A model generated the notes under the pieces. It had not been told where the DNA came from. It saw only the letters and a list, made by a program, of their open reading frames with translations, and searched no databases. Source: a virus (taxonomy: Duplodnaviria > Heunggongvirae > Uroviricota > Caudoviricetes). From it: DNA of 35,812 bases. Below, one piece after another: positions 10,566-29,298 of this stretch (position 1 is the first letter of the stretch; the number at the start of each line of letters is the position of its first letter). The stretch lies in the IMG/VR virus record IMGVR_UViG_2693429554_000020, positions 1 through 35,812 of that record; one strand, 5' to 3'. Both the position numbers and the translations under genes were made by a program.

Positions 10566-11068
10566 CTGTGTCGTCGCTCCGGCTTCAGTGATTTACGCAA
10601 TTCCCGCGCCAGAAAATAGCGTGTCCAGCTGCGGTTCTTTTCAAGCGTTTCCACCATGAAGTTATTACGTGGAGCCAGTCGCCAGCCGCTGCCACCGGAT
10701 GCGCCACGATGATGGCTGCGACGACGCTTTGCCCCTCGCCTCACGCCATAGAACAAAAAAGCCGGATAAAAATCACCGGTGATACGGCGGTTTCCCTCTC
10801 CATTACGCTGGTTAGGGGCTATACGTGCCATAAAACCAGGGCGATGTTTACTGGCTCTGGGTACCATGTAACCAATCGAACGAGCCAGGCGTCCGGTCTG
10901 ATAACCGGGGTTTTCACCCGGTGCCGACCGCGCACGGCGCATCACCAGCCGACGGGCATCACGCATATGACGCTGACCAATCGTGACAAACGCCCGCCGG
11001 ACACGGGCGCGGTTAAAGCGCATCTCCGCGGGCTGCTGAAAATCAACGTGCAAAAAGGAAGTCGTCAT
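10562..11068 (-). CDS. Putative virion morphogenesis / tail completion protein (Arg-rich)
   Basis: 168-aa basic ORF, overlapping stop/start with neighbours in the head-tail joining block. Confidence 0.4.
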   Translation of the reverse strand: MTTSFLHVDFQQPAEMRFNRARVRRAFVTIGQRHMRDARRLVMRRARSAPGENPGYQTGRLARSIGYMVPRASKHRPGFMARIAPNQRNGEGNRRITGDFYPAFLFYGVRRGAKRRRSHHRGASGGSGWRLAPRNNFMVETLEKNRSWTRYFLARELRKSLKPERRHR

Positions 11069-11453
11069 TGTTGCCTCCGTGACTCTGCCTACATTCGCCC
11101 AGCTCCGTACACTCCAGCAGCAGAAAGCGCCGCGCCCCGTTCAGATCGCGCTGACGTTTCACCCGGTACACACTGTCACCGCAGACCACCTCATAATCAG
11201 CGGTGATCCCCCGGCGGTAACGAATGGTGATGTAATGGGTGATGGCGTCCCCGGTCTGCGCGGTTTCCTGCCAGGTGGTGGCACTGGTCTGGATAACCTT
11301 CGCCCATGTCCGGAACGTAACCGGGTATTGAGGCTCCACGCCAAAGTTATCCGCGGGCATATCCACCCGCAGGCGGATCAGGACGCATTTATTCAGTTCA
11401 CCGGGGTCCGGCAGAATGTAAGTTGCGCTGGTCTGCGCCTGACGAATTTTCAT
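11043..11453 (-). CDS. Head-tail adaptor / head closure protein
   Basis: 136-aa ORF downstream of the connector-like gene; recalled similarity to head-tail joining family. Confidence 0.5.
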   Translation of the reverse strand: MKIRQAQTSATYILPDPGELNKCVLIRLRVDMPADNFGVEPQYPVTFRTWAKVIQTSATTWQETAQTGDAITHYITIRYRRGITADYEVVCGDSVYRVKRQRDLNGARRFLLLECTELGECRQSHGGNNDDFLFAR

Positions 11454-11773
11454 TGCGGAAAGTACCTGTACGGGCCGACAAGCCAGCCAAAACTCTGCGG
11501 CATGTCGAGTTTCTCCACTTCCGTAACCGACGAGCGGTTTTCGTAAAAATGGCTGATAAGCATCAGCATCCCCAGACGAATATCATCCGGCAGGTGCAGC
11601 CCGTCCGGATCGCTGTCCGGAATGGATTCATCCGGTGCATAGAGCTTCCGGTTCAGATACGTTTCCGTCCGCTTTTGCGCCGCACAGGCCAGCAGTTGCA
11701 GATGGCGGTCATCAGCATCGAAATCCTCATCCAGCCGGAGTTGGGCTTTAATCTCTTCCATTGTCAGAAGCAT
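11450..11773 (-). CDS. Head-tail connector protein (gp6-like)
   Basis: 107-aa ORF; N-terminal MLLTMEEIKAQLRLDEDFDADD... resembles gp6-type connector proteins; sits after the capsid gene. Confidence 0.5.
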   Translation of the reverse strand: MLLTMEEIKAQLRLDEDFDADDRHLQLLACAAQKRTETYLNRKLYAPDESIPDSDPDGLHLPDDIRLGMLMLISHFYENRSSVTEVEKLDMPQSFGWLVGPYRYFPQ

Positions 11774-18693: not shown

Positions 18694-18970
18694 CCGCAAC
18701 AGCCACTTTGATATCTTCCTGGGTTCTCTGTGACTCCAGTGCGATCTGCTGTTTTGCATGCTGGTTAGCCTCTATAACTGTATTGATGATTTGCAGTGAT
18801 TGCAGAACGTTACGGGTAATGGCAGTTGCTGATTCAGCATTTCGTACAGCCTCATCAGCACGCTCCTTTTCGTGCTGATATTTGCTGTAGTAATGTCCAG
18901 CAGACCAGATGAAGGAACCAATGACGCTAACAACGAAGGCAACAATAACCAGCTTATATCTCAGCTTCAT
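18578..18970 (-). CDS. i-spanin (Rz-like)
   Basis: 130-aa ORF with N-terminal TM helix, immediately after the endolysin gene, overlapping the Rz1-like ORF. Confidence 0.65.
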   Translation of the reverse strand: MKLRYKLVIVAFVVSVIGSFIWSAGHYYSKYQHEKERADEAVRNAESATAITRNVLQSLQIINTVIEANQHAKQQIALESQRTQEDIKVAVADDDCASRHVPAAAADRLRKYANSLRAGSGGTAANKPDH

Positions 18971-19845: not shown

Positions 19846-20898
19846 TTATTTCCCCACCAGTTCACTTACCTCTTTCACCGTCTGATTAAACCGCTCTGAC
19901 TCAAGTTCAACACCTAACGCCCGACGCCCCAGCGCCATTGCTGCTTTTATTGTGGAACCGGATCCCATAAAGAAATCAGCAACCAGATCACCAGGTCGAC
20001 TACTGGCATTGATTATTTGCCGGAGCATATCCGCCGGTTTCTCGCACGGATGTTTACCCGGGTAGAACTGAACGGGCTTATGCGTCCAGACATCGGTATA
20101 AGGCACGGAGACTGATACGGAGAAATAGCGCCGGAGAGATTTAAACTCATCCAGCAATTCAGAATATTTGCGATTCAGTGAATCATAAGATGCCACCAGC
20201 TGGTGGTGTGGTTGTTCCAGTTGTTGTTCCTGAAACTTCTCTGCCGCTATACGGGAAAACAGTGCCTGTAACTTCCGATAGTCAGCCTCATTCGGCAACT
20301 GCCACTGACTGGCACCAAACCAGTGGGAAACCATATTTTTCTTACCTGTGGCTTCGGCAATTTGTTTTGCCGTTATACCCAGTTCGGCACGAGCATCCCT
20401 GAAATACGATATCAGCGGTGCCATTATGTGCTGTTTGAGTTCCCTTTCTTTTGCCGCATAGCCGTCACTTTTGCCGCGATATGGCCCCTGGTAATGTTCA
20501 GCAAACAGAACGCGCTCTGTGGCAGGAAAATATGCGCGCAGACTTTCTTTATTACACCCATTCCAACGTCCGGACGGCTTCGCCCAGATGATATGGTTAA
20601 GCACGTTGAAACGTTCACGCATCATGATCTCAATATCAGATGCCAGGCGATGCCCACAGAACAGGTAAAGGCTTCCGGCAGGTTTTAACACCCGCCAGAA
20701 CTGGGCCAGACAGTGGTCCAGCCACTTAAGGTAATCTTCGTCCCCTTTCCACTGATTGTCCCAACCGTTAGGTTTCACCTTGAAGTAAGGCGGATCGGTA
20801 ACAATCAGGTCAATGGAATCATCAGGCAGGGACTGAATAAAATGCAGGCAATCAGCGTTGATTAAATCAACACTGTTTATTTTTACAGTATTTTTCAT
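19846..20898 (-). CDS. DNA methyltransferase, N6-adenine/N4-cytosine type (DPPY motif), orphan
   Basis: 350-aa ORF with IVTDPPY catalytic motif and C-terminal SAM-binding-like FFMGSGST; no adjacent restriction endonuclease gene. Confidence 0.8.
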   Translation of the reverse strand: MKNTVKINSVDLINADCLHFIQSLPDDSIDLIVTDPPYFKVKPNGWDNQWKGDEDYLKWLDHCLAQFWRVLKPAGSLYLFCGHRLASDIEIMMRERFNVLNHIIWAKPSGRWNGCNKESLRAYFPATERVLFAEHYQGPYRGKSDGYAAKERELKQHIMAPLISYFRDARAELGITAKQIAEATGKKNMVSHWFGASQWQLPNEADYRKLQALFSRIAAEKFQEQQLEQPHHQLVASYDSLNRKYSELLDEFKSLRRYFSVSVSVPYTDVWTHKPVQFYPGKHPCEKPADMLRQIINASSRPGDLVADFFMGSGSTIKAAMALGRRALGVELESERFNQTVKEVSELVGK

Positions 20899-21370: not shown

Positions 21371-21398
21371 TACAAAAAAACCGCTCAGCGGCGGGTTT
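21371..21398 (-). terminator. Terminator-like hairpin with T7 run (minus strand)
   Basis: Minus strand AAACCCGCCGCTGAGCGG followed by TTTTTTT; lies between the AT-rich cassette and the late genes. Confidence 0.35.
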
Positions 21399-21516: not shown

Positions 21517-22443
21517 ATGAAAGTTAGAAGCATAGGATTTACAATAAATAACAATAACAAAAATATTAATACCGTTGACGTAATGAATGCTTTTATCAAC
21601 GCATCAAACAGAGAACACAGTCGCACAGACTATACTCGTAAAATTCTCATTTCGGATGTGAATGATTTCTATTATGGATTAGTTGTCACATTCAGAAACC
21701 AAAAAAAGAACTGTAAGTCGCAATTTGTTGATGGTAAATTCCAGCTTAAAATTGAAGATCTTCAAGGAAGTGACAAACTTGCTAATTTCAACTTTTTCTT
21801 AATTAAAAAATCTAATCTTTCTGGTCTCTATATGTATCACCACGGGTCATGCAGTCTGAACACTCTCTTTTCTCATTTAGAAACAATAAGTAATGAATTT
21901 ATCAGAAATCAAAATAAAGAAGAAATAAAAAAACTTGGTGATAAACCAAAACAAAAAGAAGTAACTGCAATAAATAAAAAATACAAAGAAAGACTGACTT
22001 TCAGCCTTATGACAAATAAAAACAACATTCAGAGTGTTTTATGTCAATTCAAAGAGATTAAAAGCACAAGCTTTAAATTTAATTATATAGATTTTAAAGG
22101 TGGACCAATGACTGCGCTTGAACAATTTGTTAACACCACCACAATAGATATGAATTTTAATTCTAGCGACAGAACAAAAGTGCAACAACTATCTCAGAAT
22201 CTTTCAAATATTTATAATTCTATGAGTGGAGTTGCTAAAGCACAGGTTATTGCAGTAAACCATGCAGGAATAGAAAAAACCATTGATTTTATGAACTGCC
22301 CTGTTTTTTTTGAAACATACGATTTCGATATAATTGCCGATAAAGTCAATGGATTGACAAACGATAATTATACAACAAACCCTGTTTTTGATATGATAAA
22401 AGAAGAAATGCTGAACGGGACGAATAAAAATGCCTTTATATGA
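21517..22443 (+). CDS. Hypothetical protein, AT-rich cassette gene 1 (no family recognised)
   Basis: 308-aa ORF in roughly 30% GC DNA with Asn-rich N-terminus (TINNNNKNINT), opposite strand to the flanking phage genes, 14-nt overlap with the next ORF. Confidence 0.6.
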   Translation: MKVRSIGFTINNNNKNINTVDVMNAFINASNREHSRTDYTRKILISDVNDFYYGLVVTFRNQKKNCKSQFVDGKFQLKIEDLQGSDKLANFNFFLIKKSNLSGLYMYHHGSCSLNTLFSHLETISNEFIRNQNKEEIKKLGDKPKQKEVTAINKKYKERLTFSLMTNKNNIQSVLCQFKEIKSTSFKFNYIDFKGGPMTALEQFVNTTTIDMNFNSSDRTKVQQLSQNLSNIYNSMSGVAKAQVIAVNHAGIEKTIDFMNCPVFFETYDFDIIADKVNGLTNDNYTTNPVFDMIKEEMLNGTNKNAFI

Positions 22444-22978
22444 ATGGCTAATAAATAAAAGGTTGAGGTATCAGTACCTTACACTGCTTGCATTCTCGAT
22501 CCTGGCATTGCTTGCACTTTACCTATTGTACAGAAACACACCTAAAGTAAGTGTTAACTTTTTTGATTTTTATCATAAAAACTTACGAGGCTATCTCTTC
22601 TCCGGTTTTATTTCCGTGGGCTCATTTTTATTGAGCCTGCATACCTTTGTCATAATAAATTTACGCGATAAGGTTTTTGCAACTCAGGAATATAAGGAAA
22701 TTTATAGCATTGCCACTGGTATACCTATTGACAAAATCAATGATAGTGCACTTTATAAACCTTTAGACAATTTATCCTCATTTATTAATACATCAATATT
22801 ATGTTCTATCACAACAGCAATTGCACAATTCACTATTGGACTTTCAACTAATTTATATGCATGCTTATTTTGCGTATGGCTTGCAATACTAACGGTATTT
22901 CTTTTATTACATTGCCTCATCATAATCAGACAAAATATTAAAATTTTATTAAAGCAACAGAGAAAAAAAGGGGGGTAA
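22430..22978 (+). CDS. Hypothetical membrane protein, AT-rich cassette gene 2 (about four TM helices)
   Basis: 182-aa ORF with four hydrophobic segments, translationally coupled to gene 1 (ATG inside ...ATGCCTTTATATGA...), basic C-terminus. Confidence 0.6.
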   Translation: MPLYEWLINKRLRYQYLTLLAFSILALLALYLLYRNTPKVSVNFFDFYHKNLRGYLFSGFISVGSFLLSLHTFVIINLRDKVFATQEYKEIYSIATGIPIDKINDSALYKPLDNLSSFINTSILCSITTAIAQFTIGLSTNLYACLFCVWLAILTVFLLLHCLIIIRQNIKILLKQQRKKGG

Positions 22979-22985
22979 TTCCCCC
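22970..22985. terminator. Bidirectional terminator hairpin between convergent cassette gene 2 and Q
   Basis: GGGGGG-TAATT-CCCCC flanked by A8 on the plus side (T-run on minus strand), occupying the 12 bp between the two stop codons. Confidence 0.6.
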
Positions 22986-22990
22986 TAATA

Positions 22991-23332
22991 TTACAACATT
23001 GAAAGCACACCATCCAGAAAACCAAGAGCTGTTTGCAACTCTTTTCTTATTGTCCCATCAGAACACTTCTGCTTCTTTGCAATAGTTCTTAGTGAGATGC
23101 CGATAACAAAATGAGCAATAACCAACTCATACTCTTCGGGCTTATATTTCCGCAATCGCGCAACACAGCTGTCAATCATGATTCCTTCATCATCATCGCA
23201 TTGTTGGCGTGTTTTCTTTCCATGAGGTAGTAAACCTTTAAACCCTGCAGCAACAGGCTGCCAGTCCACACCACTGTTATCTGCTGCAGCCCATGCACCC
23301 CAGCGGTCCAATACTTCATACATATCACGCAT
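22991..23332 (-). CDS. Late-gene antiterminator Q (QuuD-like)
   Basis: MRDMYEVLDRWGAWAA...GFKGLL...CDDDE...CSDG matches the Q-family pattern as recalled; start at ATG 23332 with GGAGAAAG SD (track ORF begins at 23347). Confidence 0.7.
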   Translation of the reverse strand: MRDMYEVLDRWGAWAAADNSGVDWQPVAAGFKGLLPHGKKTRQQCDDDEGIMIDSCVARLRKYKPEEYELVIAHFVIGISLRTIAKKQKCSDGTIRKELQTALGFLDGVLSML

Positions 23333-23349
23333 CAACTTTCTCCACAAAA

Positions 23350-24345
23350 TCAGGCCAGCACGCCAATTGCCAGTGCACGATCGATAAAACGAAATATCAG
23401 CTCCAGCTGGGAGCCATACTTCTCTTCAAATGCCACGGTATCCGCATGCAGCTCGTCGTGATGCTTTCTGCACAAAGGCAACACAAAGAGGTCATGCGCT
23501 TTTGTAGCCATTCCACCCTGACCGTGACCTATCAGGTGGTGGGGATCATCAGCAGGTTTTCCACAACATGCGCACGGCTGCGTCTTAACCCATCGCGTGT
23601 ACTTTTCATTAACCCAGCGGCGACGTTTGGGGCGTAACATAAAAGACTCCGGCGACTCCGGATCCACTTTCAGCGCCAGCACCTTTTTCGCCTTATCCTG
23701 GATGATGCTGGTGGCAGGAACCGAAGGCACAAGGTCACTTTCCCGGGTAACAGACGGCACAACAGGCTTCGGTAATCTCAGTGCCTTACGGGCTGCACTT
23801 TCCGGTAAGGCATCCGCCAGATCATTACGAATCAGCCACCAGCACAGTTCCGGCATTGTCACAACATGACTGTCATCAAAACCGAGATCCCGACGCACAA
23901 CAGACAACACCCAGCGGGCACTGTTATCCGTTGCCATTGATTCCAGCCGTTCCGTGAACTGATCGCGCAGCTGGTTATCGCAGTGCCAGCACAAACGGAT
24001 TGCGCCCGGAGCGTGTCGCATTGTTGTCATGTTCTCGCTGTGCCAGTCGGAATGAGGCCACTGGCAGCCTTTTTCACGAAGTAACCAGCTTTCAAGACAT
24101 TCCACGCCACCAGCACGACGGATCACTGCCTCATTGCGGAACACGGCCCGAACGGCAGGATCATCCGCCAGCGGTTGTGATGCCGCCGGAACGGCACCAC
24201 TGGCGAAAGATGAATAACGTTCCGGCTCAGGCTCCAGCAAGACACGCCCCTGCATAAACAAGGGCATCAGCTCTGAACCGGGTCTGAACAATACGATCCC
24301 CATACGCGGGGCAATTTCAGGGGTCAGTAGTGCTCTCACGGTCAC
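23350..24345 (-). CDS. Conserved lambdoid nin-region protein (DUF968/YdfU-like) with C-terminal Cys/His zinc motif
   Basis: 331-aa ORF between KilA-N and Q; C-terminus CACCGKPADDPHHLIGHG...CRKHHDELH. Family name from memory; start codon uncertain. Confidence 0.5.
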   Translation of the reverse strand: MTVRALLTPEIAPRMGIVLFRPGSELMPLFMQGRVLLEPEPERYSSFASGAVPAASQPLADDPAVRAVFRNEAVIRRAGGVECLESWLLREKGCQWPHSDWHSENMTTMRHAPGAIRLCWHCDNQLRDQFTERLESMATDNSARWVLSVVRRDLGFDDSHVVTMPELCWWLIRNDLADALPESAARKALRLPKPVVPSVTRESDLVPSVPATSIIQDKAKKVLALKVDPESPESFMLRPKRRRWVNEKYTRWVKTQPCACCGKPADDPHHLIGHGQGGMATKAHDLFVLPLCRKHHDELHADTVAFEEKYGSQLELIFRFIDRALAIGVLA

Positions 24346-24346
24346 C

Positions 24347-25144
24347 TCAATGAACGGTATCGAGCAGCTTTAACAGCTCAGGGAATCGGGATTCGAAGAA
24401 ATGCGGCTGCGTCTCGCGCGGATTTGCGGGACTGGTGATGTTCTTGCCGAACATGCAGCCTTTCGCCGTCAGCGACCAGAATTTTTTGATGTTGTTAATC
24501 GCGGTACGGCTGTATCGTTCGCGCTGCTCGACGATCCCCAGTTTCACCATCTGGTGATATGCCTGATTAGCCGTCAGGCGGATACCATACTGCTTCAGCA
24601 GTGCACTCAGTGACAGCGTGGGGCGGCTTGAGCCATCAGGCGCGTCAGCAGGAGCATCAATGGCATAGCGCGGTGCCAGATTCGGTAAGCCAACAGCCTC
24701 CTGGAGTTTCTGACAGGCACCAAGCACTGAAGAGTTAGACAGGTTTAATTCCCGGCGCATAAAGTCCAGCAGAATCACACCAGCCTGCATCTTGTCAGCA
24801 GCCTGTCCGGATAATTTTTCCGGTACGCTGGTTACCATGTCGAAAGTACGGATCACCTTCAGATGGAATGACGGGCTGATCCACATTGCATAGGCATACA
24901 CCAGTTCTTTGCAGACATACGTCCCCTGGTTATTTCCGCCACGAATAACGTTAACTGACTCTATATTGACCGAGTTGCAAATCTGCAACTCGCTTATTAA
25001 ACGTTCAGTTTGCTCATTGCGGAGCCAGAATGCAGGCTTATGCTTATCCAGAGAACCAGCAGCCCTGTGCAGATCGTTCAGGCTGTAACGCCCATAAGCA
25101 TCACGACGAACTTCAATACCATCAATGACCATCAGATTATTCAT
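24347..25144 (-). CDS. KilA-N domain protein (antirepressor-like)
   Basis: N-terminal MNNLMVIDGIEVRRDAYGRYSLNDLHRAAG... typical of KilA-N; strong SD AGAGGAGA upstream. Confidence 0.7.
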   Translation of the reverse strand: MNNLMVIDGIEVRRDAYGRYSLNDLHRAAGSLDKHKPAFWLRNEQTERLISELQICNSVNIESVNVIRGGNNQGTYVCKELVYAYAMWISPSFHLKVIRTFDMVTSVPEKLSGQAADKMQAGVILLDFMRRELNLSNSSVLGACQKLQEAVGLPNLAPRYAIDAPADAPDGSSRPTLSLSALLKQYGIRLTANQAYHQMVKLGIVEQRERYSRTAINNIKKFWSLTAKGCMFGKNITSPANPRETQPHFFESRFPELLKLLDTVH

Positions 25145-25163: not shown

Positions 25164-25553
25164 TCAGGCGGCTGCACCCGCCGTTTTCTCGTACTTACTG
25201 ATAGTGATCTCGACCTTCCCTTCCGGGATAACCGGTCCCCACTCCACCAGCATTCTTTTCACCTGACTGTCGTCTTCCCACACACCCGCGTGGGTCAGGG
25301 CGTCAAACAGCGCCTTGTTATAGTTGTCCAGATCACGGATCCGGTTATCCGGTGGAAACAACACGATCTCCACTGCAGCAGGTGCCGACGTTGGTTTCGG
25401 CAGACGACGTAACTGCTCAACTATTGCTGCGCACGCCGCGCTCTGGAATTTGCGCCCCGCCGCGCTTATCAGGCTTTTACCAGCAAACGCCCCTTTGTTA
25501 GGGTGTCGCCAGTACGTATTCACGCTGGGCGGGAAAGGCAGGATCAGTTTCAT
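25164..25553 (-). CDS. rusA: Holliday junction resolvase RusA
   Basis: 129-aa protein with RusA-like PPSVNTYWRH and RDLDNYNKALFDALT motifs; ATGA overlap with the upstream gene. Confidence 0.8.
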   Translation of the reverse strand: MKLILPFPPSVNTYWRHPNKGAFAGKSLISAAGRKFQSAACAAIVEQLRRLPKPTSAPAAVEIVLFPPDNRIRDLDNYNKALFDALTHAGVWEDDSQVKRMLVEWGPVIPEGKVEITISKYEKTAGAAA

Positions 25554-25876
25554 ACTTTCAGGCCTCTCTCATGTAGCCAGTGGGTTGCACGCAGCCTTGC
25601 GTTTTCCTCATCGGCAAGCAGTGAGCGGATAATCCCGACAGCCTCGCTGTCGTCGTCCTTCACCGCGGTATGAAGCGTTATCCCCCGGGCCACGCCACGC
25701 TTTATCGTGATGACGCCTTTTTTCTCCAGTGCGCGAAGATGCTCCACCGCTGCATTCACCGAACGGTATCCCAGCATGGTTGCCACCTCCTGATTGGTTG
25801 GCGGGAAGCCACGTTCTTTCTGGTAAGAAATCAGCATATCCAGCACCTGCTGCTGGCATTGAGTTAACGTCGTCAT
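25550..25876 (-). CDS. LexA N-terminal DNA-binding-domain-like protein (no S24 peptidase domain)
   Basis: LTQCQQQVLDMLISYQKERGFPPTNQEVATMLGYRSVNAAVEHLRALEKKGVITIKRGVARGITL parallels the LexA winged-helix domain; start at ATG 25876 in a TAATG overlap with the upstream gene. Confidence 0.6.
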   Translation of the reverse strand: MTTLTQCQQQVLDMLISYQKERGFPPTNQEVATMLGYRSVNAAVEHLRALEKKGVITIKRGVARGITLHTAVKDDDSEAVGIIRSLLADEENARLRATHWLHERGLKV

Positions 25877-26364
25877 TAAGCCCCCACGTAATTCCCTGAC
25901 AGATACCACTCTTCACCCGATGCAGCACGCTTGCTGCTTTTCCGTAAGCACCGCTCACGACGCGCCAGAAAATTGTTTCGTTCTGGCTGGGAGTGGCTTT
26001 CACGGAATGCCGCCATCCACACGGTTGCAGCACGACGGTATAAGCCCCTGGACTCCAGTTCTTCAGCCTGGCGGGTCAGGCACAAAATCACACGGGGATC
26101 GTTAGTGCCGACATAGAAATTGCGCACAGGTCTGGTTTCTCGAACTGGTTGTGGTTCCGGTTCCTGCGCTCTCTCAGTCAGGCGCGGGAAATGTCTGCGT
26201 GTATCTCCTTCACAACGGTGAGCCACACGCCCACTCTGACGTAACTTGCTTGCTGACTGCAGAACGCGCTGCCGTGAGTAACCTGCAAAAGCATCCGCAA
26301 TGTCTCCGGAAGTACATCCCGGATGGGCTTCAATGAATTTCTGAACTTCATTCAAAAGACTCAT
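25876..26364 (-). CDS. PerC-like transcriptional activator family protein (putative)
   Basis: C-terminal QAEELESRGLYRRAATVWMAAF resembles the PerC signature as recalled; start at ATG 26364 with GGGGG SD. Confidence 0.4.
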   Translation of the reverse strand: MSLLNEVQKFIEAHPGCTSGDIADAFAGYSRQRVLQSASKLRQSGRVAHRCEGDTRRHFPRLTERAQEPEPQPVRETRPVRNFYVGTNDPRVILCLTRQAEELESRGLYRRAATVWMAAFRESHSQPERNNFLARRERCLRKSSKRAASGEEWYLSGNYVGA

Positions 26365-26366
26365 GA

Positions 26367-27308
26367 TCACCCCCTGAATCCTGCCGGGATCTGGCTGTAG
26401 TCCACGTTGTCGTAACTGGATTTGAAGTACGGGTCTTCGCGTTTTTCGGTGTACGTGCTGACGGACGGTGATAAGCGCAGGGAAAGCTCATCCCATTTTT
26501 CCCGCAACTTCGACGGGCTGAGCACGTTACGGCACCAGAACGGATCGCGGCTGACGCGGCTGTACATCTCGCAGATTTGTTTGTGAGTACGACCATCCTG
26601 CACACACATCAGGCGAATTTCGTTTGCCCAGGCTGTCCAGTTCGGTTCTTTGGGACGAACCACCTCGCCGTCACATTCAGCGGCTTGCTCGTACAGGGCG
26701 ATGATTTTTTTCCAGAGCCACTGTGCGCAGGTCAAATCATCCTGCGTTCCCCACTGGCGCTTTTTAGGGCTGAATACAACCGCATCAGGATGGCGAGTTA
26801 AAAAATCCTGTTCATCCGTCTGCGCGTCCGGTTGCGAAGCGTCCGGACGAGAAGGTTTTTTATCTGACGGATCATGTTTTGATTTTACTGACGGATCCCC
26901 GCCAGATTCTGACGGGTGAAAACCCGCTTTTTTGCCAGATTTCGACGCATCAAATTTTGACGGGTCAGATTTTGATGCGTCAGATTTTGATGGGTCAGAA
27001 TCTGACAGTTGAGAAAATGCCGCTGCCTGAAGCTTCGCAACGTTAAGCTGATAAACATTCGACGCATTGCGGTTACCCTGGCGACGCGCCTTACGCGTTA
27101 ACCAGCCTTCTGCTTCCAGCCGTGCGATAGCCGTCCTGACGGTACTCATCCCCGCGCCAATCTGACGGGCAATAGTTTCAATTGATGGCCAGCACACACC
27201 TTCGTCATTACTGAAATCAGCCAGGCGGGCCATAATTGCCACGCTGGATAATTTCATGCCTGACGCAGCACAACCATCCCATACATAGCCGGTTAATTTA
27301 GTGCTCAT
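26367..27308 (-). CDS. Replication initiator (lambda O-like, N-terminal HTH) with internal origin iterons
   Basis: 313-aa ORF after the cII-like region; repetitive SDSDPSKSDASKSDPSKFDASK linker encoded by DNA iterons; position equivalent to lambda O. Confidence 0.6.
   Translation of the reverse strand: MSTKLTGYVWDGCAASGMKLSSVAIMARLADFSNDEGVCWPSIETIARQIGAGMSTVRTAIARLEAEGWLTRKARRQGNRNASNVYQLNVAKLQAAAFSQLSDSDPSKSDASKSDPSKFDASKSGKKAGFHPSESGGDPSVKSKHDPSDKKPSRPDASQPDAQTDEQDFLTRHPDAVVFSPKKRQWGTQDDLTCAQWLWKKIIALYEQAAECDGEVVRPKEPNWTAWANEIRLMCVQDGRTHKQICEMYSRVSRDPFWCRNVLSPSKLREKWDELSLRLSPSVSTYTEKREDPYFKSSYDNVDYSQIPAGFRG
26860..27015. repeat. Iteron array (candidate origin of replication inside the initiator gene)
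   Basis: About eight direct repeats of a GATTTTGA(T/C)G(G/C)GTCA-like unit at roughly 15-18 bp spacing. Confidence 0.5.
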
Positions 27309-28486: not shown

Positions 28487-28602
28487 ATCTTTCTCCTCTG
28501 AAATCCAGAGGGGATAATGCTACTTAAAGTAGCGAATTGCAACTACTTAAAATAGAAATGACGAGCGTATGTGATGTGAGTAATCTTCTACCTATGGTAG
28601 AA
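28487..28602. promoter_or_regulatory. OR-like operator/promoter region (three CTAC-N5-GTAG palindromes, candidate pR and pRM)
   Basis: Operators at 28520-28532 (CTACTTAAAGTAG), 28543-28555 (CTACTTAAAATAG) and 28588-28600 (CTACCTATGGTAG, centred on the cI ATG). Candidate pR on minus: TTGCAA-17-CATTAT. Candidate pRM on plus: ATGACG-17-TAATCT, giving a near-leaderless cI mRNA. Confidence 0.5.
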
Positions 28603-29298
28603 GAACAGAAGTATCCAGATTTCGCCAAGAGACTAAACGAGTTAATGACAAACAAGGGAATTTCTGTCACCCAACTCAAAAGTCTTGTTGGCGTTACATA
28701 TGAAATGGCGCGGCGATACACAATCGGCGCAGCGAAGCCTCGTGCCTCTGTCATGAATAAACTTGCGTTGGCTCTGGGGGTATCGGCTTCATATTTAGAA
28801 TATGGTGTTGGCGAGAGAGAAGGATGTAAGGAAATGGCAAGCATCCCCAATCCAACAAAACCCGACGTATACAGGATAGAAGTTTTAGATCTTAGCGTTA
28901 GCGCAGGACCTGGAACCTATATGCTTTCAGACTATGTTGATGTGCTCTACGCCATTGAGTTCACAACAGAACATGCCCGTTCTCTTTTCGGTAACCGTTC
29001 TCAGGATGATATTAAGGTTATGACTGTAAATGGCGATAGTATGTCCCCTACTCTCGTTTCCGGAGATCGACTGTTTGTCGACATTTCTGTTCGTCACTTC
29101 CAGACTGATGGAATTTACTCTTTCGTTTACGGTAAGACTTTTCATGTTAAACGTCTTCAAATGCAAGGTGACAAGCTAGCCGTTCTTTCGGATAACCCTG
29201 CCTATGAGAAATGGTACATCGATGAAAAATCGCAGGATCAGCTTTATGTAATGGGCAAGGCGTTGATTCATGAGTCAATAAAATACAATCGGTTATAG
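28594..29298 (+). CDS. CI-type prophage repressor (HTH plus S24 LexA-like peptidase domain)
   Basis: N-terminal XRE-type HTH and C-terminal GDSMSPT (Ser) with downstream HVKRL (Lys). Start at ATG 28594 since the longer ORF (28537) would cover operator sites. Confidence 0.8.
   Translation: MVEEQKYPDFAKRLNELMTNKGISVTQLKSLVGVTYEMARRYTIGAAKPRASVMNKLALALGVSASYLEYGVGEREGCKEMASIPNPTKPDVYRIEVLDLSVSAGPGTYMLSDYVDVLYAIEFTTEHARSLFGNRSQDDIKVMTVNGDSMSPTLVSGDRLFVDISVRHFQTDGIYSFVYGKTFHVKRLQMQGDKLAVLSDNPAYEKWYIDEKSQDQLYVMGKALIHESIKYNRL

Follow-up and report, generated by a model that had tools for sequence, protein, structure and literature searches.

GIL01 gp6, from a tectivirus of Bacillus thuringiensis, is the closest characterized case to the protein described here. 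This truncated homologue of LexA recognizes GaCACAnnTGTGaC and turns on the late promoter P3; its operator, a non-SOS palindrome distinct from LexA boxes, overlaps the -35 element of that promoter (PMC6182141). Our subject is a 108-residue protein, for which we coined the name LexN, encoded on the minus strand at positions 25550-25876 of a Caudoviricetes sequence of 35,812 nucleotides (IMG/VR record IMGVR_UViG_2693429554_000020). This sequence was analyzed over its whole length and is referred to below as the window. Like gp6, LexN is a phage-encoded LexA DNA-binding domain that has no cleavage domain and belongs to an early operon of an SOS-linked temperate phage. Whereas gp6 consists of the domain alone (66 aa), LexN adds a conserved helical hairpin and, unlike GIL01, its phage is lambdoid and has an S24-type CI of its own. 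BLASTP aligned no part of LexN with GIL01 ORF6 (contig L172, 4350-4550) at E<=100 and, since there is no detectable pairwise similarity, the two captures of the domain were independent.

With E. coli LexA, LexN shares the sequence of the N-terminal domain, its fold and most of the base-reading residues (PDB 1LEA, 1JHF, 3JSO). LexA also has an S24 domain, a Ser119/Lys156 dyad and an Ala84-Gly85 cleavage site, whereas LexN lacks all three, including the conserved Ala-Gly at which self-cleavage occurs. LexA dimerizes via its C-terminal domain, in the place of which LexN has a helical hairpin of 30 residues, and LexN, unlike LexA, is encoded by a phage and comes from an early lytic operon. The N-terminal cleavage fragment of LexA (residues 1-84), which arises from SOS induction, has residual operator binding and no dimerization element, and is rapidly degraded. 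LexN is likewise this domain without its C-terminal domain, but it adds the hairpin and evolves independently under selection. Lambdoid CI repressors (HTH_3 plus a cleavable Peptidase_S24), often labelled “LexA family” too, resemble LexN in being SOS-linked DNA-binding regulators encoded by phages; CI, however, has a lambda-type helix-turn-helix and lies in the immunity region, divergent from cro, whereas the winged helix of LexN is of LexA type, LexN has no S24 domain and its place is in the nin region.

LexN is a prophage gene of a known kind, common and already present in catalogues. PHROG 362 matches its residues 1-108 over 106/106 profile positions (E=1.8e-59), and its DNA is 96.8-98.4% identical to that of Escherichia phage Ayreon, mEp460, SfV and Stx2a/Stx2c-converting phages. 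The mEp460 copy (gp46) is labelled “transcriptional repressor” or “LexA DNA binding domain protein”, and that of SfV (orf42) “unknown”. We found the gene in >566 IMG/VR contigs and in 2233 of 5426 complete E. coli genomes (41%), with up to four copies per genome; there PGAP annotates it as “LexA repressor” or “LexA family protein”. A comparison of Stx phages enters it, without functional analysis, as pham 237 (“LexA family transcriptional regulator, pfam01726”), one of the “lexA” genes in its lysis-lysogeny group, and lumps CI-type repressors together with stand-alone LexA-domain proteins (PMC8136144). Our full-text literature search returned only catalogue entries and the gp6 precedent, and found no functional study of the lambdoid LexN family.

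Stand-alone LexA DNA-binding-domain proteins are also widespread in other, unrelated phages. Many of the profile matches (P0127, P0130, P0152 and P0171-P0173) have two tandem LexA_DNA_bind domains, no detected S24 motif and the helix motif SPNGVMCHL; from their sequences they look like single-chain pseudo-dimers and a family apart from LexN. New here are the conserved helical tail of LexN, the replacement of Glu44 across the family, the strict coupling with rusA and a circumstantial link to near-consensus SOS boxes carried by the phages.

LexN Combines a LexA-Type Winged Helix with a Conserved Helical Tail

The gene and the parts of its product are as follows.

25550-25876, minus strand: LexN gene, stand-alone LexA DNA-binding-domain protein; 108 codons plus TGA stop (open reading frame list, sequence)
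25673-25876, minus strand: winged helix-turn-helix of LexA type, residues 1-68 (translation, AlphaFold2 model, Foldseek)
25721-25762, minus strand: recognition helix, residues 39-52, SVNAAVEHLRALEK; LexA counterpart SPNAAEEHLKALAR (translation, alignments)
25655-25672, minus strand: flexible linker of low confidence, residues 69-74 (predicted local distance difference test score, pLDDT, <50 at 71-74; family indels here)
25568-25654, minus strand: conserved two-helix hairpin, residues 75-103, a putative dimerization module (translation, model, conservation)

The protein starts MTTLTQCQQQ (MTTLTQCQQQVLDML) and ends ...WLHERGLKV. An original prediction, made from the letters of the window, had placed here a 108-residue product resembling the LexA N-terminal winged helix but lacking the S24 autoprotease domain, and both statements were borne out at exactly those coordinates. 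Pfam LexA_DNA_bind (PF01726) matched LexN residues 1-65 over 65/65 model positions (E=2.9e-19; score 69.1 bits, cut-off 23.7), BLASTP against E. coli LexA gave 35/68 identical residues (51%) in an ungapped alignment (E=2e-21), and phmmer against PDB sequences matched the E. coli LexA N-terminal domain 1lea (E=6.6e-16). A Pfam scan for Peptidase_S24 returned none, the protein stopping at residue 108, and the NCBIfam LexA equivalog TIGR00498 scored 66.8 bits, under its cut-off of 110.95, over model positions 1-90 of 203. An AlphaFold2 model computed from 19 diverse family members (mean pLDDT 84.7) has helices at residues 6-22, 28-35 and 40-52 and strands at 56-58 and 66-68. By Foldseek it superimposes on DNA-bound E. 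coli LexA (3jso_B) with a root mean square deviation of 0.9 A over 68 residues, at 50% identity.

The ratio of nonsynonymous to synonymous polymorphism (pN/pS), computed over 80 distinct alleles from related loci, was 0.08 overall, 0.02 for residues 1-69 and 0.17 for the tail. LexN is a real gene under purifying selection.

The roughly 40 residues that follow the domain had been described beforehand as unrelated. They are indeed unrelated to S24; what that description had not recognized is that they form a conserved helical hairpin, with modelled helices at residues 75-87 and 93-103 and a pLDDT of about 90. Among the tails of 14 diverged family members, the most distant 38% identical, A97 and L101 do not vary and positions 82, 83, 86, 87 and 100 are hydrophobic. 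Because the tail is conserved and has a pN/pS of 0.17, we regard it as a functional module and not as random read-through. No PDB sequence matched it at E<=10, and in that search nothing in it resembled a known interaction module. As modelled, the hairpin is probably a dimerization element that replaces the S24 dimerization and cleavage domain of LexA.

We also considered whether the tail might be what remains of the linker and cleavage site of LexA. In close relatives the tail motif LLAGEE aligns with VAAGEP of LexA (MAFFT, phmmer). A-G is found in 133 of 145 close alleles, and the window carries a minority form, LLADEE (A88-D89), seen in 7 of the 145 copies. This candidate was rejected: distant members carry unrelated residues there, so the likeness of LLA(G/D)EE to VAAGEP is no conserved feature.

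LexN Retains Most of the Base-Contact Residues of LexA

LexN residue numbers correspond one to one to those of E. coli LexA. The helix-3 residues of LexA that contact DNA are Ser39, Asn41, Ala42, Glu44 and Glu45 (PMC3091678, PMC13416735; secondary citations, from which the exact role of Glu44 is also taken), and R52 and K53 are important at the end of the recognition helix (PMC4807011). Aligning the helix-3 contacts to those of LexA had been proposed together with the original prediction as a check against a generic winged helix. In our alignment four of the five contacts (Ser39, Asn41, Ala42 and Glu45) are identical and the fifth is changed, LexN having Val at position 44 where LexA has Glu44. 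LexA K53 and R64 are retained as well, and position 52 of LexN is K. Judged by its sequence, the LexN domain is LexA-specific, beyond a generic winged helix.

The LexN helix, SVNAAVEHL, belongs to the type found in gammaproteobacterial LexA (SPNAAEEHL), and by this sequence criterion LexN was captured from a gammaproteobacterial-type LexA. Canonical LexA-like matches have Glu at position 44; since it is replaced in LexN, the specificity of LexN may be shifted.

Strong SOS Boxes Often Accompany LexN in Its Phages

SOS boxes were scored with a 20-bp position weight matrix (PWM) built from 21 E. coli boxes, on which known boxes average 20.6 bits; boxes of 20 bits or more were called strong. Two sites in the window are relevant.

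20871-20890, no strand assigned: near-consensus SOS box CACTGTTTATTTTTACAGTA, a perfect CTGT-N8-ACAG (pattern match; PWM 22.3 bits)
18883-18902, no strand assigned: weaker SOS-like site TGCTGTAGTAATGTCCAGCA in a lysis-region open reading frame (PWM 15.2 bits)

The first of these spans codons 3-9 of a late-region N6/N4 DNA methyltransferase gene (19846-20898, minus strand). Its 22.3 bits were equalled in 0 of 300 dinucleotide shuffles, the shuffle maximum being 17.5, and a promoter search at this box returned no promoter-like site. Either host LexA or LexN, or both, may bind this box. Sites of 15 bits or more, such as the second, occur in only about 5% of shuffles; this one lies directly after a hairpin at 18854-18879.

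Strong boxes were then counted in loci with LexN and in two sets of lambdoid loci that lack it.

IMG/VR loci with LexN (80 loci): 57 strong boxes in 1.25 Mb scanned, in 43/80 loci
K-12-type RusA lambdoid loci (LexN in 0/80): 1 strong box in 1.14 Mb, in 1/80 loci
NinB-type lambdoid loci (none with LexN): 3 strong boxes in 1.22 Mb, in 3/78 loci

Within the LexN loci, boxes recur at three places: inside the mEp460-type cI, in the rusA/KilA-N intergenic region and at the methyltransferase gene start. The methyltransferase box, together with the N-terminus that it encodes, is present in 63/63 related methyltransferase loci and in the distant phage L006, and 61 of the 63 carry LexN. Among loci chosen instead by the box-bearing mEp460-type cI, 59/63 have LexN, with a cI-to-LexN spacing of 2.6 to 4.8 kb. 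The box-bearing modules that co-occur with LexN are two different ones, the late methyltransferase and the mEp460-type cI.

The same motif emerged from searches for palindromes of any kind. ACTGT-N8-ACAGT is the only 5-N-5 palindrome common to at least four of six diverged LexN loci, and when an alternative conserved palindrome was sought in the window and these six loci, the SOS box alone was returned. A search for inverted repeats from 19.5 to 30.6 kb of the window found only CI/Cro operators, origin-like repeats and hairpins.

Several of these boxes lie at unusual positions. A box of 25.8 bits sits within the mEp460 cI (contig L001, 11149-11168; coding sequence 10985-11632) and is present in 63/63 loci with that cI, and one of 27.0 bits lies within a different S24-type cI (contig L002, 836-855); both are about 165-230 nt from the cI start. 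In some relatives the rusA/KilA-N intergenic region is 150 bp long and contains the SOS box TACTGTATTTATGAACAGTG (contig L087, 10765-10784), an arrangement that suggests a LexA-controlled, antirepressor-like KilA-N gene. In the window this gap is 20 bp and has no SOS box.

In the distant phage L006 (AP025685.1; 5500-5600, 9794-11390), an SOS box follows the promoter-like hexamers TTGCAT...TACTAA and overlaps this promoter-like site just upstream of a lexN-rusA-DUF968-Q block. Given the box and the hexamers at this place, the block, Q included, would be SOS-inducible. In the same phage, Cas1-like and AcrVA2-like genes adjoin the late methyltransferase.

A Tentative Function for LexN

We tentatively propose, at somewhat less than an even chance, that LexN is a dimeric repressor that binds SOS-type operators and that RecA cannot inactivate. 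LexN would be made from the early-right (pR) operon along with a PerC-like protein, RusA and Q. Residues 1-68 would read the base contacts as LexA does while the hairpin dimerizes; because the hairpin replaces S24 as the dimerization element, the dimer would sit on palindromic CTGT-N8-ACAG. RecA* would have no cleavage site and no catalytic domain to use on such a protein. Prophage induction would destroy host LexA exactly as the early-right operon switches on, and LexN, as a LexA surrogate, would re-occupy the phage SOS boxes, and probably host boxes too, so keeping or restoring repression in a cell without LexA. The recurrence of near-consensus SOS boxes in phages with the gene, the window among them, is circumstantial support for operators of SOS type. 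What the analysis establishes is the identity of the domain, the lack of S24, the conservation of the tail, the place in the operon, selection on the gene and the occurrence of strong SOS boxes in these phages; dimerization by the tail, SOS boxes as the target, repression instead of activation and the role in timing are inferred. The original prediction had offered two functions, occupancy of SOS boxes insensitive to RecA and binding to phage operators, and both are plausible. We are more doubtful of a further step, in which LexN would be an “SOS off-switch”, made only after induction and re-repressing both the phage boxes (in cI, upstream of KilA-N and at the methyltransferase) and the host SOS genes.

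Several findings weigh against this proposal. The 57 strong boxes of the LexN set reduce to only 7 distinct sequences (against 1 and 2 in the two control sets), and a control palindrome, GTCT-N8-AGAC, was equally inflated there, with 57 sites and 8 distinct sequences. Since an arbitrary palindrome behaves in the same way, shared descent drives the raw box counts. The raw enrichment, which we had considered as proof, was downgraded on this ground, and the association of LexN with phage SOS boxes is suggestive and not proof. In addition, among the 19 LexN loci whose flanks extend to essentially 10 kb in both directions, 7 have no strong box, and the matrix scan found none in the distant loci L003 to L005. 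The matrix is moreover of our own making, from 21 boxes. Host LexA alone suffices to explain SOS boxes in phages, and repression from the methyltransferase box looks counterproductive, because this box is within the late operon and the lysis genes lie downstream of it.

The recognition helix raises a further objection. Glu44 is absent from 12/12 distinct tailed family members, which have Val, Ala, Phe, Thr, Leu or Tyr instead, and distant members also differ at positions 42 and 45 (for example SVNTIAGHL, SSNAVLLHL and SQNTVFIHL). Read from the helix sequences, this drift fits drifting phage-specific operators and not a target fixed by the host regulon.

These last points favor what we take as the main alternative, namely that LexN is a phage-specific transcription factor with a non-SOS operator of its own, turning particular phage genes on or off in the manner of GIL01 gp6. 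We consider it possible but doubtful. It has an experimental precedent in the activation of P3 by gp6 (PMC6182141). It also accommodates the replacement of Glu44 throughout the family, the variation of the recognition helix between subfamilies, the roughly one third of full-flank loci that have no nearby SOS box, and the wide occurrence of stand-alone LexA-domain proteins in unrelated phages. However, the palindrome searches, which could have revealed such an operator in the window or in the six diverged loci, gave the SOS box alone. The helix of the E. coli subfamily is, moreover, nearer to that of LexA than the gp6 helix is, with no BLASTP similarity between LexN and gp6, and in lambdoid phages the late genes already have an activator in Q.

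LexN Is Encoded in an Early Operon Next to rusA

The genes and junctions around LexN are listed below in the order in which the minus strand is read.

28537-29298: S24-type CI-like gene, immunity region
26367-27308, minus strand: replication protein
25876-26370, minus strand: PerC-like (yfdN-like) protein, 164 aa (C-terminal Pfam PerC, E=7.8e-9; PHROG 1324; RefSeq annotation in E. coli genomes)
25874-25878, minus strand: TAATG, PerC-like stop overlapping the LexN start (sequence; GGGGG Shine-Dalgarno-like run just upstream)
25550-25553, minus strand: ATGA, LexN stop overlapping the rusA start, translational coupling (sequence)
25164-25553, minus strand: RusA Holliday-junction resolvase (Pfam RusA, E=6.2e-15)
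24347-25144, minus strand: KilA-N protein
23350-24345, minus strand: DUF968/HNH protein
22991-23347, minus strand: Q-like antiterminator

LexN thus lies between the replication gene and Q, on the lytic strand, in the nin-region equivalent of the early-right operon, a location that the original prediction had given correctly. Our promoter search found no promoter-like site adjoining LexN, and the total for the window was not above that of shuffles. In most relatives a 654-bp dam gene stands between the PerC-like gene and LexN. It is exactly absent from the window, where a junction of ATGA to ATGA replaces it (compared with contig L087, 9318-10004). Because the genes are joined at the ATGA overlaps, LexN uses the translation-initiation region that serves dam in relatives.

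The LexN end coincides with the rusA start in the 59 relatives that have full-length rusA matches. On other contigs (L002 to L006), homologues at 39-47% identity directly precede rusA, and DUF968 and Q come after it. The 4-bp overlap of LexN and rusA recurs in the distant loci L002, L004 and L005, L006 has a 2-bp gap, and in L003 a single opposite-strand open reading frame is inserted between the two genes. A DNA methyltransferase often lies directly upstream of LexN in distant homologues.

This arrangement raises an alternative of another kind, that LexN is no transcription factor but a DNA-targeting accessory of RusA, of DUF968/HNH or of the Dam or C5 methyltransferases. Its position immediately upstream of rusA, usually overlapping it, is kept in homologues as little as 39% identical; a DNA methyltransferase is its frequent upstream neighbor, and the sole strong SOS box of the window falls at a methyltransferase gene start. 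Set against this, gene order in the nin region often reflects modular inheritance and not physical partnership, L003 tolerates an opposite-strand frame between LexN and rusA, the tail resembles no known interaction module, and phages with K-12-type RusA work without LexN (0/80 loci). We regard the accessory role as unlikely.

A little less likely again, in our estimate, is the idea that LexN competes with LexA at SOS boxes but represses poorly, so that it raises or prolongs SOS expression and prophage induction. Because LexN has the same DNA-binding domain, competition is plausible if it binds SOS boxes at all. Its lack of the bulky C-terminal domain fits a weak repressor, and at the methyltransferase box, which is inside a transcription unit, a weak occupant would be less harmful than LexA. 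However, the early-right operon is silent in lysogens, so LexN appears only once LexA cleavage is under way, and expression of this kind places it after the onset of that cleavage. Moreover, occupancy of an operator over a promoter normally represses, whatever the C-terminal domain.

That LexN is a decaying, functionless fragment of a captured lexA or cI-like gene is hardly credible: many truncated or frameshifted copies do occur in the database clusters, but the pN/pS values are low over the 80 alleles and in the tail alike, homologues from other hosts, 38-47% identical, have kept the length, the tail and the position, and the gene is carried by 41% of complete E. coli genomes.

Some further features of the neighborhood were recorded. 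Residues 8-70 of the PerC-like protein have a weak match to a MarR-family PHROG; PerC/Pch proteins are regulators of virulence genes in enteropathogenic and enterohemorrhagic E. coli (EPEC and EHEC). Residues 67-103 of the KilA-N protein weakly match the PADLOC candidate defence model PDC-S22 (E=3.9e-6). The PADLOC defence models otherwise gave only a marginal CARF match (E=3.5e-4), which was dismissed.

Nested inverted repeats at 26944-27006, in the replication-protein gene (GACGCATCAAATTTTGAC / GTCAGATTTTGATGCGTC and GTCAGATTTTGA / TCAGAATCTGAC), probably represent the origin of the phage. Two genes of opposite orientation lie between Q and the late genes, at 21517-22978 on the plus strand, one encoding 308 aa (PHROG 2802) and the other 182 aa without a family, and terminator-like hairpins are found at about 22970-22986 and at 21380-21394.

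Implications for SOS Control and Prophage Biology

In kind, the finding is unsurprising. The annotation of LexN as “LexA repressor” is a mislabel. Should LexN have an operator of its own instead of binding SOS boxes, it would be a second, independently evolved phage retargeting of the LexA domain after GIL01 gp6.

If, as we tentatively propose, LexN does bind SOS boxes, a large share of E. coli strains, those with Shigella SfV-like or Stx2a/Stx2c-converting prophages included, possess a further LexA-type repressor, one that is immune to inactivation by DNA damage. This would explain why near-consensus phage SOS boxes are found at odd places, such as the interior of cI and the beginning of a late methyltransferase gene. 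LexN could then shorten the SOS response of induced cells or change its shape. It could also silence antirepressors under LexA control in co-resident prophages, and could affect induction-linked toxin production. Since 41% of complete E. coli genomes carry the gene, an SOS off-switch of this type, if true, would modify SOS dynamics, competition between prophages and Stx-phage induction on a wide scale, and would so far have been overlooked.

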